Assembly (NCBI GenBank): GCA_002069705.1
Contig: MWBV01000004.1
Location: 1 to 48,358, forward strand
Reading direction: 5' to 3'
DNA: 48,358 bases
Source: Candidatus Diapherotrites archaeon ADurb.Bin253
Lineage (GTDB): Archaea; Nanobdellota; Nanobdellia; Pacearchaeales; GW2011-AR1
Both the position numbers and the translations under genes were made by a program. Within the stretch, counting starts at the first letter, position 1. The number at the start of each line of letters is the position of its first letter. Shown here piece by piece: positions 30,140-34,300 of this stretch. The notes beneath the pieces were generated by a model. The model saw nothing but the letters and a program-made list of their open reading frames with translations. It was not told the origin of the DNA and ran no database searches.

Positions 30140-30910
30140 ATGAAAAGAAAAATGCCTCTAATCGCACTTGCACAAATAAAATACAATCATACAGGAAGAC
30201 ATAATGTTGACAGAATAAAGAAATATATTGTTCTAGCTGCTGAAAAAAAGGCAGATATTGTGTGTTTTCCTGAAACTTGTATAAATAAAGCTCAAAAATT
30301 ACCTTTAAATCACAAATTAATAAAAGAGATTCAAGAAACCTGTAAAGAACATTCTATTTGGGCAATAATAACAGATAATTTTATTTCTAAAGGAACACAT
30401 TATAAAATGGCTATTTTAATTAATAGAGAAGGAAAAATAAAAGGAAAATACAAGAAGATACATCTTTATGGTGATGGAGTTGAAGAAAACGGCAAAAGAA
30501 TTTTTGTAAGAGATACTGATTTTGGTAAGATTGGAATTGCTATTTGTTGGGACTTGGCTTTTCCAAAACTATTCAGAAAAATGAAAAAAGCAGGTGCTGA
30601 AATTGTTTTTTGTCCTTCTTATTGGGGATATGAAGCTAAAGCCCATAAAGAAGAACCTAAATTAAATGAATTGAATTTATTGAAATCAATGGTGCTTTCA
30701 AGAGCTTTTGAAAACTTGAATTTTGTATGTGTGTGTAATCCTTATAAAAAAGAATGGGATTTAATTGATTATTCTGCTATTGCTTCACCACATAAAATTC
30801 TTACAGAGTTGTATGATAAAGAAGGTTTAGTTATGTCAAAAATTAATTTAAATGAAATAGAAAAATTCACTAAACTTTACCCTGGTAAAAAACCTGGTGA
30901 AGAAAAATAA
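30140..30910 (+). CDS. Carbon-nitrogen hydrolase (nitrilase/amidase superfamily)
   Basis: Catalytic E-K-C triad in FPE, YKKIHL and ICWD; SRAFEN. Confidence 0.92.
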   Translation: MKRKMPLIALAQIKYNHTGRHNVDRIKKYIVLAAEKKADIVCFPETCINKAQKLPLNHKLIKEIQETCKEHSIWAIITDNFISKGTHYKMAILINREGKIKGKYKKIHLYGDGVEENGKRIFVRDTDFGKIGIAICWDLAFPKLFRKMKKAGAEIVFCPSYWGYEAKAHKEEPKLNELNLLKSMVLSRAFENLNFVCVCNPYKKEWDLIDYSAIASPHKILTELYDKEGLVMSKINLNEIEKFTKLYPGKKPGEEK

Positions 30911-30912
30911 AT

Positions 30913-31476
30913 TTATATTTTCTTTAAAATCTTTTTTTCAAGTTTCATTAAAATAAAAAAACCTATAATTGCGAATAAACCAGTTGTTGCAAATACTAAT
31001 TCAAATCCTATTCTCTCAGCTAACAATGCTCCAACTCCTGCTGTTATTGCTGTTCCTATACTTACAGAAGATGAATAAATTGAGTACTGGAATCCTCTTT
31101 TTCCTTTTTCAAGATTAGATGTGAATAAACTTGACCAAGAAGGATATGCAAATGCTGCTGCAATACCATAAACAAATTGAATTATATAAATATGGTAAAT
31201 ATGTGTTGAGAAAATATATCCTATTGGAACTAAAACAAACAAAGCAGTTCCTAATCTCAACATCCATAATCTATCTTTAGGATTAAATTTGTAAGCAAAT
31301 AAAAGCTGAAGAAGTGCATGAGTTATCATGAAAATTGCACTGGCTACTCCTGCTGCAGTTATTGTTCCTCCAACAAGATTATCTTTTATGAATATTGCAA
31401 GAATAGGAGAAATTAAACCAAAACCACTTAAAACAAATATGTCTGATATTATTAAAAGTTTTAATGTTTTGTTCAT
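30913..31476 (-). CDS. Half-size MFS-like transporter (about 6 TM)
   Basis: 187 aa with six hydrophobic helices and MFS-like P.W..L....L....RG and G...G..LAERIG motifs. Confidence 0.8.
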   Translation of the reverse strand: MNKTLKLLIISDIFVLSGFGLISPILAIFIKDNLVGGTITAAGVASAIFMITHALLQLLFAYKFNPKDRLWMLRLGTALFVLVPIGYIFSTHIYHIYIIQFVYGIAAAFAYPSWSSLFTSNLEKGKRGFQYSIYSSSVSIGTAITAGVGALLAERIGFELVFATTGLFAIIGFFILMKLEKKILKKI

Positions 31477-31597
31477 ATTTGTCTTTTACCTCAGGGTAAT
31501 TAGAAAATTTTGATTATAAATCTTTTGAAATAAGATTATTGAAAAACCATATATTTATAAGGATTTTAGGCAAATATTTTAATATACTCAAATATGA

Positions 31598-31678
31598 GCC
31601 GCCTTCGCATAGTGGTATTGCAGTGGATTGCTAATCCACGCCCTTCGGGGCTGGCAGGTTCGATTCCTGCAGGCGGCG
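31598..31678 (+). tRNA. tRNA-Ser(GCU)
   Basis: Acceptor GCCGCCT/AGGCGGC, anticodon arm GTGGA-TTGCTAA-TCCAC, long variable arm GCCC-TTCG-GGGC, T-loop TTCGATT and G discriminator. Confidence 0.96.
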
Positions 31679-31690
31679 TATTAAAAAATA

Positions 31691-32341
31691 TTAGTTTCTT
31701 TTCATAACTAAGTAACTTGTTCTATTTTTTGGAATATTTGGCCAATCAATAATTATTTGTCCATGAAAACCATTTTGAGTAAAAATCCTCGCAGTTTCTT
31801 TTAATTCTTGTTCACTTTTTGGATAAAATTGAATAACGAGAAGTCCGTTTTTGTTTAAAACAGAATAAATTCCTCAAGCTATTCTTTGTATTTCTTGTTT
31901 ACCCTTAATCCATTGAAGTGCAGAAACAGAAACAACTCCATCAAATTTACGACCTTCAAACAATTTTCCAACATCCTTCATATCTCCAACATATGCTTCA
32001 AATCCTTTTTCTTTGGATTTACTTATCATCTTTGGAATTAAATCCATGCAAGTTACATTATATCCTTCAGAACAATAGACTTCTGCAGTATATCCTGGAC
32101 CAGAGCCAATATCTAATAAAGACTTTCCAGAATCTAATTCTAAAAGTTCTAAAACTCTATAAGCTATTTTTTCTTGTGCTCTTCTCATACCTCCAGAACG
32201 AGAATATTTTTCTACTTCTTCATCAGTATAATAAAGAAGAGGATTTCCTAAATCTTCCTCAGGTCTATTATTTTTTACAACCCATCCTTTATCTTTTTTT
32301 GAGTTTCCTTTTCTTCTTTGATTTTTTTTATTTCTTATCAT
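31691..32341 (-). pseudogene. Bud23/WBSCR22-like class I SAM methyltransferase interrupted by one in-frame TGA (31874-31876)
   Basis: RPEE...P..YY..EE..KY, LLDIGSGPG, MDL.P.M, FDGVVSVSALQW; after the TGA, 60 more in-frame codons (GIYSVLNKNGLLVIQFYP...GFHG...DWP...YLVM) run to a TAA at 31691-31693. Confidence 0.8.
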
Positions 32342-32438
32342 AAAAAATTTAATTTCTCTGTTTTTATAAATATTATAATACCTGCTAGTATTAACAATTT
32401 ATGATAGGTTTTTAAATAATCATTTCGTATACTTATTT

Positions 32439-32597
32439 ATGGCAATGGTTGATTTAGAGGACATCCATTCAATAGAGAGGGCAAAGAAAAAAAATTCTGT
32501 AAGTCGTAAGCACATTTATTGTCAAAAGTGTGGTCGTGCAAAACGCTGTCATGATCCAGAGTGCACTCAATTACATTGTAATTGTGGACAACTTTAA
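32439..32597 (+). CDS. 52-aa cysteine-rich microprotein (putative zinc finger); not in the ORF track
   Basis: ATG at 32439, TAA at 32595-32597; MAMVDLEDIHSIERAKKKNSVSRKHIYCQKCGRAKRCHDPECTQLHCNCGQL. A TTTTTAAA box lies about 25 nt upstream. Confidence 0.65.
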   Translation: MAMVDLEDIHSIERAKKKNSVSRKHIYCQKCGRAKRCHDPECTQLHCNCGQL

Positions 32598-32619
32598 ATT
32601 TCAAAGAGTATTGGATAAC

Positions 32620-32904
32620 ATGGACAAAATAGACATAATAGATACTGAAGTAGATGACTTTGAAGATGAAGAAGAATTAGATGATGAAATTGAAGATGAA
32701 GAATATGAGGATGAGAGTGAAGAAGAAAAAATAGAAAATGAAAGATATGAACAATACGCAAATTTAATAAAACAAAAGACAGACAGAGAATTAATTGAGA
32801 GTATTTCTGTTAGATTATTTTCATTGGAAACAGATATAAAACATATAAGAGATGATTTAGTAGATTTGTATAATCTTGTACTTGAAAATCAGGAAATTGA
32901 CTAA
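32620..32904 (+). CDS. Highly acidic small protein
   Basis: 94 aa from the ATG at 32620, with a D/E-rich N-terminal half and a heptad-like C-terminal helix. Confidence 0.65.
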   Translation: MDKIDIIDTEVDDFEDEEELDDEIEDEEYEDESEEEKIENERYEQYANLIKQKTDRELIESISVRLFSLETDIKHIRDDLVDLYNLVLENQEID

Positions 32905-32929
32905 TTGAATTGTATAAATAAAATAATCT

Positions 32930-34300
32930 TTAAGTTGGTCTTGGGTTATAAGAGGTTATTAATTTTATGAAATATTCTAGTTTTTCTTTTACTTTCAATT
33001 GTATTATTGCCTTAGAAGTTTCAACTTGTCTAACTTCTTTTAATTTTGGTAATATAAATATTGAAGGTAAAATTCTTAATACTGTACTTAAAAGAAATAC
33101 AGAGAGTATTGCTCCTAATCCAAATATAGAAAATGATGCTGAACCTGAAAGTTGTCCTCCAATCAATCCTCCTAAAAATGAACCTATTGAATTAACAAAT
33201 CCAAAATAAGTGAAACAGAGTATTATCTTTGGCTTTGTTACTGCATCATAAATGAAGTTAGATACTGAGAGATTATATGCTGCCCATACAAACCCTGAAA
33301 AGAATTCAACTGCAAAAAGATACCTTATTAAAACCCATTGTGGAGAGTTCATCAATAATAACGAAGCTATCCATAATAAAGGCACAAATGAAATCAAGAA
33401 TCCTGATATTTTCATAACTTTAACTGTTCCATACTTATCGATTTTTTTTCCTATAAATGAAAGGAAAAATATAGGCGAGACAAGTGAACTTAAAACTATT
33501 AAAGTGAATGCAAAATAAGAAAGCTGTAATTCTTTTAACATATATACTGAAAAAAACGGAGATGCTATTACAACAGCAAAAGACATCAAAGATGTAAATA
33601 TAACAAATCTTCCAAAATTATTAGAATGCATTTTTTTTGCAAATTGTAAAAAGCTGAAAAATGCTTTATCGTCTCTTGTTGGTTGTGGTTCATACTGCTT
33701 TTTTAAGAAATGAAATGAAAAATATCTTCCTATTGCAGCTAAAGAGAAAAGTAAAATAAATCCTAAGAAAACTTTTTCTTCTTTAAAAGAATCAAGTATA
33801 ATACTTGCTGTAATCATGCTTATTGCTATAACAAATCCATTTATCCTACTCCTTTTACTGAAAAATTCTCCTCTATTTGTTTCAACTAAGTCCTGCATCC
33901 ATGAAGTCCAGGCAGGAGAGGCAATTAACCCTGAGATTATTATTATTGAATAACATATTATCAAAAATAATGAAGCATAAATTAGTTTTAATTGAAAAAA
34001 GAAATATGCAACTCCAACCAAAAGCAGGGGTATCCAGAAAAATGCCTGAATGAATATGAAAGGCAAAACCATATTCTTTCTAGATTTTTTGTAATAAGCT
34101 TTACTTAAAAAAATTCTTAATATATTTGCAATAAGAGTTGGAAGAACTTCTAATATACCTATTAATTTGTTTGAGAGTCCTAATGAAAGTGCATAAGGAG
34201 TTATGTATTTTAACCCCATACCTTCCATTACACTAGAAGAAGCACCATCTTTGAGACTATATTTCTTTCCTTGTTCCTTCAATAATCTTTCTTCTTCCAT
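32930..34300 (-). CDS. MFS transporter (about 12 TM)
   Basis: 456 aa with about 12 hydrophobic helices; PAWTSWMQDLV...RG and GKKIDKYG (MFS motif A-like). Confidence 0.9.
   Translation of the reverse strand: MEEERLLKEQGKKYSLKDGASSSVMEGMGLKYITPYALSLGLSNKLIGILEVLPTLIANILRIFLSKAYYKKSRKNMVLPFIFIQAFFWIPLLLVGVAYFFFQLKLIYASLFLIICYSIIIISGLIASPAWTSWMQDLVETNRGEFFSKRSRINGFVIAISMITASIILDSFKEEKVFLGFILLFSLAAIGRYFSFHFLKKQYEPQPTRDDKAFFSFLQFAKKMHSNNFGRFVIFTSLMSFAVVIASPFFSVYMLKELQLSYFAFTLIVLSSLVSPIFFLSFIGKKIDKYGTVKVMKISGFLISFVPLLWIASLLLMNSPQWVLIRYLFAVEFFSGFVWAAYNLSVSNFIYDAVTKPKIILCFTYFGFVNSIGSFLGGLIGGQLSGSASFSIFGLGAILSVFLLSTVLRILPSIFILPKLKEVRQVETSKAIIQLKVKEKLEYFIKLITSYNPRPT

Follow-up and report, generated by a model that had tools for sequence, protein, structure and literature searches.

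The window analysed here is a 48,358-nucleotide stretch of DNA from a tiny DPANN archaeon of wastewater digesters, and its minus strand carries a gene whose product resembles the rRNA methyltransferase Bud23/WBSCR22 (Table 1). From the ATG start, the reading frame of this gene runs for 155 codons, reaches a TGA at codon 156, and continues for another 60 codons to a TAA. If the TGA is read, the joined frame comprises 216 sense positions, and the TGA is its sole interruption. Identical 155-residue products are called in many public assemblies. The TATA-like element upstream of the start codon may be an archaeal promoter for a leaderless or short-leader mRNA. At the opposite end, a tRNA-Ser(GCU) gene faces the methyltransferase gene in convergent orientation, beginning only 12 nt beyond the TAA; one population SNP, at position 31593, sits just outside this tRNA gene. 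Divergent from the methyltransferase gene are two short ORFs, both predicted in every related contig, the first encoding a Cys-rich, zinc-ribbon-like protein of 52 residues and the second a very acidic protein of 94 residues. Neither has a Pfam match. That the shorter ORF is a real gene is suggested by the two population SNPs it contains, both of which leave the encoded residues unchanged.

Table 1 Features of the Bud23-like methyltransferase locus, in window coordinates.
Feature	Position	Strand	Content or evidence
Whole Bud23-like methyltransferase gene	31691..32341	-	ATG 32341-32339, TAA 31693-31691; sequence, phmmer against the PDB, AF2, Foldseek, tree
Codons 1-155, ORF ended by TGA	31877..32341	-	tail, RPE, SAM motifs I-III/IV, SxSAxQW; β1-β4
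In-frame TGA, codon 156	31874..31876	-	in the helix between β4 and β5; polymorphic TGA/CGA/CAA
60 codons past the TGA	31694..31873	-	β5-β7; family-invariant Q171, Y173, P174, F192, D199, P201
TATA-like TTTATAAAAA	32361..32370	-	20-29 nt upstream of the ATG, read from sequence
Population SNP span	31838..32309	-	alleles of public contigs; defines H1, H2, H3 and mosaics
Variable sites, upstream of codon 156	32309; 32261; 32132; 32017; 31977	-	K/N; synonymous; D/E; S/A; K/R
Variable sites, codon 156 and beyond	31876, 31875; 31838	-	within codon 156; synonymous
tRNA-Ser(GCU)	31598..31678	+
52-residue ORF	32439..32597	+	Cys-rich, zinc-ribbon-like
94-residue ORF	32620..32904	+	very acidic

In the joined protein, Pfam recognizes generic class I methyltransferase domains only (Methyltransf_11, E = 2e-13), and NCBIfam has no specific model for it. 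A phmmer search against the PDB returns yeast Bud23 (E = 1.7e-28) over residues 26-214, an alignment that crosses the stop, together with human WBSCR22 (E = 1.7e-24); the next methyltransferase follows at 8e-6. The identity to the yeast and human proteins is 31-38%. An AF2 model of the joined protein, built on 27 homologues, has a mean pLDDT of 89.8 and a seven-strand class I fold, in which a Lys/Arg-rich N-terminal tail (about the first 17-25 residues) is predicted to be disordered. When this model is searched with Foldseek, ranks 1 to 8 are all occupied by Bud23/WBSCR22 chains (E = 1.5e-19 to 1.5e-15, rmsd of about 2 Å), with TM scores on the target of 0.72-0.90 for these eight and of 0.83-0.90 for seven of them. 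Generic methyltransferases follow after a gap, from 4e-11.

Residue conservation was assessed in a 72-sequence alignment that contains 66 Bud23-like rows, yeast and human included, and six outgroup methyltransferases. The residues of the SAM fold (L76, D77, G79, G81, G83 and D100, which make up the LDxGxGxG of motif I and the acidic motif II) are invariant. A second set is conserved in at least 90% of the Bud23-like rows and differs in the outgroups: the RPE segment, Q56, R62, S138/S140/Q143/W144, Q171/Y173/P174 and D199/P201. Each of these family-only residues (window numbering) aligns with its yeast counterpart, and six lie past the TGA. The coordinates and the motifs on which the initial annotation had based its assignment (RPEE, YY..E..KY, R.LELL, SVSALQW and, beyond the stop, QFYP...GF.G...D.P...YLV) are present exactly as it described them, and the agreement with the Bud23 family is well beyond chance. 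Its proposal of this family in place of a generic methyltransferase is borne out by the sequence search of the PDB and by the tree, in both of which the joined protein groups with Bud23 and apart from the outgroups. Sequence and model together support the prediction that the gene encodes a short, archaeal-type Bud23/WBSCR22 (KOG1541 / K19306) class I SAM-dependent RNA methyltransferase.

A maximum-likelihood tree sets the Bud23-like proteins apart from the outgroup methyltransferases with a support of 99/95 (96 in a quick tree). One clade (100/100) unites the yeast and human PDB sequences with the long-form proteins that group with them, and the window protein lies outside of it. The C-terminal WBS_methylT domain (PF12589) is found in seven of the eight proteins sampled from this eukaryotic long-form clade and, according to Pfam, is absent from the window protein and from the archaeal representatives. 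The archaeal proteins fall into several supported clades, among them an Asgard-containing clade (95/87) and a clade of Woese-, Pace- and Nanoarchaeota (97/83); the window protein nests in the Woese/Pace/Nanoarchaeota subclade. Because the backbone of the tree is a polytomy, the origin of the eukaryotic clade is not placed by it. A separate clade (100/100) is made up of the Bud23-like proteins of Promethearchaeota MAGs (L038, L039, L042-L045), which have 211-215 residues and share 32-38% identity with the window protein. The gene had initially been described as a close homologue of Bud23. Homology is upheld by sequence, fold, motifs and phylogeny; the word close is not, given the 31-38% identity, the position outside the eukaryotic clade, and the lack of both PF12589 and a free-standing Trm112.

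An exhaustive HMMER search collected 189 representative clusters at E ≤ 1e-10. When prokaryotic species are scanned with one genome each, full-length homologues are found only in archaea, where their hosts are Woese-, Pace- and Nanoarchaeota, Micrarchaeota, Iainarchaeota and Promethearchaeota (Asgard) MAGs, and all are 190-230 residues long. Some JGI auto-annotations label such proteins 18S rRNA (guanine1575-N7)-methyltransferase. All other archaeal homologues examined are uninterrupted. An apparent second in-frame TGA in a distant homologue (G132) lies upstream of the start codon and is an alignment overhang, and a homologue that seemed to be truncated at its N-terminus (L031) is merely masked with Ns. 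Closer to the source organism, the distribution is sparse: an orthologue is present in two of the 23 other species of the same genus, in one of 16 further genomes of the order, and, phylum-wide, in 11 of 400 high-quality genomes (about 3%, that is, absent from about 97%). The best reading of this distribution is that the gene is accessory and has already been lost by most relatives.

Bud23 together with Trm112 makes m7G in eukaryotic 18S rRNA. The initial annotation had proposed a search for Trm112, and in this genome (88% complete) no free-standing Trm112 is found. Its sole Trm112-like sequence is the N-terminus of a 348-residue Trm112-methyltransferase fusion on contig C12 (L005:1498-2544, plus strand). 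This N-terminus is an archaeal Trm112-like zinc knuckle that scores 63-66 bits against NF038101, under the 77-bit cut-off. A second weak match to Trm112 proved to be ribosomal protein L40e. Across relatives, Trm112 is undetectable in 38 of 41, including the three that carry the orthologue. The enzyme is predicted to work apparently without a separate Trm112 partner. As for the substrate, yeast 18S G1575 is equivalent to E. coli 16S G1338, and the 16S gene on contig C2 carries GGAAUCCGUAGUAAUCG, the universal GGAAUC motif with the G1338-equivalent base. Because this base is universal, its presence is necessary only and is uninformative on modification. The intact enzyme would make m7G at the 16S guanine equivalent to yeast G1575.

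To follow codon 156 beyond the sequenced strain, alleles were surveyed across public metagenomes, in which near-identical proteins (96-99%) are abundant. A DNA-pattern search of metagenomes yielded a single contig, far fewer than were reached through protein clusters. One cluster of such proteins, of nominally 216 residues with Trp at position 156, translates only under TGA = W, and several clusters hold members of 155 residues. The same TGA was verified at the DNA level in 14 independent assemblies, which come from different projects and were built with different assemblers: this window; ERZ795028, ERZ27257483, ERZ27257450 and ERZ772708 from ENA; 3300025730, 3300010351, 3300009670, 3300009666 and 3300009783 from JGI; SRR36158021, SRR27911154 (plus seven similar places) and SRR8536338 from Logan; and the NCBI MAG GCA_035410325.1. 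A sequencing or assembly error is excluded by this recurrence. At least 17 contigs carry CGA (Arg) at the same codon and at least 24 carry CAA (Gln), with the DNA examined for at least 10 and at least 12 of these, respectively. The stop is present on about 22 of the roughly 80 contigs of the species, or about a quarter, in contig counts that are not normalised. In every TGA contig that reaches them, the 60 downstream codons are intact and hold no second lesion. Sister species have CAA, CAG, AAA or TTC at this position. The codons of orthologues, which the initial annotation had suggested comparing, are CAA, CGA, CAG, AAA or TTC, and TGA at codon 156 is conserved in no other species. Because contigs of the same species have CGA or CAA and sister species have CAA, CAG or AAA, the path of alleles reads as leading from CAA (Gln) through CGA (Arg) to TGA, with a C>T transition as its final step.

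TGA behaves as an ordinary stop in this genome. It ends 121 of 707 long ORFs (17%), with a median of five codons to the next stop, and a G after the TGA, as at codon 156, is nothing unusual for a stop here (17 of 95 TGA stops). ARAGORN finds a tRNA-Trp(CCA) and neither a tRNA-UCA nor a tRNA-Sec in this genome, in which SepSecS and SelD were likewise not found. Within the window, Rfam detects only tRNAs and no SECIS, and the RNA past the stop is unstructured (z = -1.3). Genome-wide reassignment of TGA is ruled out by the clean TGA stops and the absent suppressor tRNA, and selenocysteine by the missing tRNA-Sec, SepSecS, SelD and SECIS and by the Gln or Arg of relatives at this position. A split gene in which re-initiation yields a two-piece enzyme is also excluded, because the sole in-frame ATG, GTG or TTG after the TGA is that of M213. 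Programmed recoding of the codon (as Sec, Trp or Gly, or within an incipient code change), or else an error in sequencing or assembly, is therefore exceedingly improbable. It draws on the fact that some gene callers used translation table 4 and reported Trp at codon 156; set against it are the 17% of long ORFs that end cleanly in TGA, the lack of the tRNAs, enzymes and SECIS named above, orthologues with Gln or Arg in place of Cys or Trp, and the 14 independent assemblies.

Low-GC contigs from ENA ERZ795028 and JGI 3300025730 (L001 and L002) were translated by gene callers with table 4. The use of this table (TGA = W) has put a spurious 216-residue protein with W156 into public collections, where it hides the stop. 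Table 4 is applied silently by some callers, and an in-frame TGA in a low-GC MAG is not necessarily a sign of recoding. Other long TGA-joined frames in this genome look like non-coding or antisense ORFs, and a codon-usage scan for interrupted genes did not discriminate in this 29% GC genome. At C2:64198-64851 (plus strand), two protein-like frames of 112 and 104 codons without a Pfam match are joined by one TGA (...RKVLH*LIYRMAAW...); they may be neighbouring genes that share a frame, or together make up another gene with an interruption.

Three main haplotypes are distinguished by codon 156, namely H1 with TGA, H2 with CGA and H3 with CAA, and mosaics are found beside them. In one mosaic, present on contigs of 63 kb and 77 kb, the 5' markers of H1 are combined with CAA and T504; in another, the TGA is flanked on both sides by H3 markers, one of them 38 nt away. 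Overall, the TGA is seen on at least five haplotype backgrounds, and all four gametes are observed between positions 31876 and 31838, which are 38 nt apart. Because this distance is shorter than assembler k-mers, the combinations reflect real recombination or recurrent mutation and not chimeric assembly; assembly chimeras alone are an insufficient account of the mosaics. The presence of four gametes across 38 nt points to frequent homologous recombination in this DPANN lineage. The SNP density in the gene is about 1.2%, equal to that of its flanks. Across the species population, a comparison of window positions 30400-33600 with loci L001-L004 and L102-L134 gives a SNP density of about 1% and extensive marker mosaicism. 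Targeted hypervariation of the DGR type, which a set of almost exclusively non-synonymous SNPs might evoke, is rejected, as the SNPs are neither adenine-specific nor clustered and their density matches that of the flanks.

The spread of the TGA over at least five backgrounds, including the one with an H3 marker 38 nt away, and the repeated loss of the gene across the phylum would also be expected if loss were adaptive. A null allele would then be favoured in some digesters, owing to the cost of the enzyme or to ribosome properties, and a gene-specific sweep spread by recombination would be in progress. This pattern is indistinguishable from that of neutral drift with recombination, and intact alleles are still the majority; adaptive loss is accordingly given a low probability.

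The long-term history of the gene is one of constraint. Relative to orthologues of 84% identity, the dN/dS ratio is 0.16 before the stop and 0.18 after it, which means that purifying selection acted on the full-length protein until recently. Within the species, six of the eight variable positions are non-synonymous, and on the H1 branch this applies to all four changes (E70D, A109S, R122K and the nonsense change), against a long-term dN/dS of 0.17; SNPs in neighbouring genes are mostly synonymous. The within-species pattern leans towards relaxed constraint, with counts too small for significance. Each missense change of H1 is a conservative one (E>D, A>S, R>K), a pattern that could reflect continuing selection on the protein.

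Taken together, these results are best explained, with a probability of about 0.65, by a TGA that segregates as a loss-of-function allele in an accessory gene, most likely marking a dispensable gene that is in the course of being lost. In the sequenced strain, translation would stop at codon 156, as expected for a true nonsense mutation. The resulting 155-residue product would most likely be inactive because it is without β5-β7 and the invariant QFYP. The TGA allele would be neutral or nearly so, because it is carried by about a quarter of contigs, beside intact alleles and on several haplotypes; near-neutrality in turn is in keeping with an accessory gene already lost from most relatives. The 3' part would have escaped decay through frequent recombination with intact alleles. 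The initial annotation had taken the conserved motifs past the stop as a sign of a very recent event or of readthrough. This argument is weakened by the finding that the allele is widespread and recombined, so that exchange with intact alleles can keep the 3' part clean. Among the three origins it had offered for the stop, error is eliminated by the 14 assemblies, a pseudogene allele stands as the best reading, and readthrough has gained no support. Two observations count against a null allele: a frequency of about 25% across many digesters is high unless the allele is neutral, confers a benefit or has hitch-hiked with a successful strain, and no second lesion is found in the 60 downstream codons, though recombination can explain the latter.

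The same two observations bear on leaky termination, in which near-cognate tRNAs (Trp-CCA, Arg, Cys) would read the UGA at a low rate and the allele would attenuate the gene in place of abolishing it. UGA is generally the leakiest stop codon. In a slow-growing symbiont, a small dose of full-length enzyme may be enough for an rRNA modifier that acts stoichiometrically, and the product of near-cognate readthrough would probably be functional, since codon 156 accepts Q, R, K, L, E and F. This high variability in orthologues marks a tolerant surface position, and the intact downstream ORF of all TGA contigs, the intermediate frequency of the allele in many samples, and the conservative missense changes on the TGA haplotype are each consistent with a product that is still made. 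Leaky termination is nonetheless unlikely: the stop stands in an ordinary TGA-G context with no downstream structure (z = -1.3) and no suppressor tRNA, TGA is conserved at this codon in no other species, the gene is dispensable in most relatives, and recombination alone accounts for the clean 3' part.

Fragments that are missing strands of the fold rarely fold themselves, and the 155-residue product loses three of the seven strands of the Rossmann-like sheet together with the residues of QFYP and the D and P, all of them invariant. In no other species is there a natural short form that ends at this point. A function of the N-terminal fragment itself, such as that of a module that binds SAM or the ribosome, is thus very improbable, even though the fragment retains the SAM motifs and the basic tail and even though, as one published study reports, the presence of Bud23 and not its catalysis is what matters for 40S maturation in yeast and human (PMC4472018).

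The proposal of a nonsense allele in a gene that is being lost makes the stop codon itself a matter of ordinary population genetics, in which an intermediate-frequency, recombining nonsense allele of an uncultivated symbiont is usable as a population-genetic marker. A more speculative and rather improbable proposal is that the TGA is no null but is maintained as a "dimmer" allele, with rare near-cognate readthrough at a codon open to substitution supplying a little full-length enzyme. In a DPANN population that recombines freely, the Gln, Arg and stop alleles would then persist side by side, with the dose of enzyme and the level of 16S m7G suiting different hosts or digesters. If this were true, an archaeal Bud23-type m7G would be present at the P-site of the small subunit without Trm112, and eukaryotic Bud23 would descend from an archaeal enzyme.

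Reviews of the Trm112 network report no Bud23 homologue in archaea (PMC5372719, PMC6144793), and the literature searched contained no paper that pairs Bud23 with Asgard, DPANN or their phyla. The archaeal Bud23-like family thus appears to be undescribed in that literature and is a modest extension of a known family; a clear set of short Bud23-like proteins in DPANN and Asgard archaea runs counter to the published statement that there are none in archaea. If the G1338-equivalent base is methylated, the enzyme would provide an archaeal point of departure for a eukaryotic factor of ribosome biogenesis and would offer biochemists a minimal form that needs no partner.

In comparison with eukaryotic Bud23/WBSCR22 (18S m7G1575/G1639; PDB IDs: 4QTT/4QTU and 6G4W), the core of the window protein superposes at about 2 Å with a TM score of up to 0.90. 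The two share the RPE segment, Q32/R38, SxSAxQW, QFYP and D177/P179 (yeast numbering), as well as a clade apart from other methyltransferases. In contrast to the eukaryotic proteins, which have the Lys-rich C-terminal WBS_methylT domain (PF12589), the window protein has a basic N-terminal tail; its gene is interrupted by a TGA in the sequenced strain, and its substrate is a predicted one. The short archaeal Bud23-like proteins (190-230 residues) match it in length, architecture and motifs, and are uninterrupted where examined. With respect to the stop, the closest parallels are the nonsense polymorphisms and young pseudogenes of reduced symbiont genomes, in which there is likewise one C>T change at a CGA, an ORF that is otherwise intact, and a gene that is mostly lost. 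Unlike typical young pseudogenes, the allele described here is unusually well documented, as it is found in many metagenomes, at an intermediate frequency and on recombinant backgrounds.
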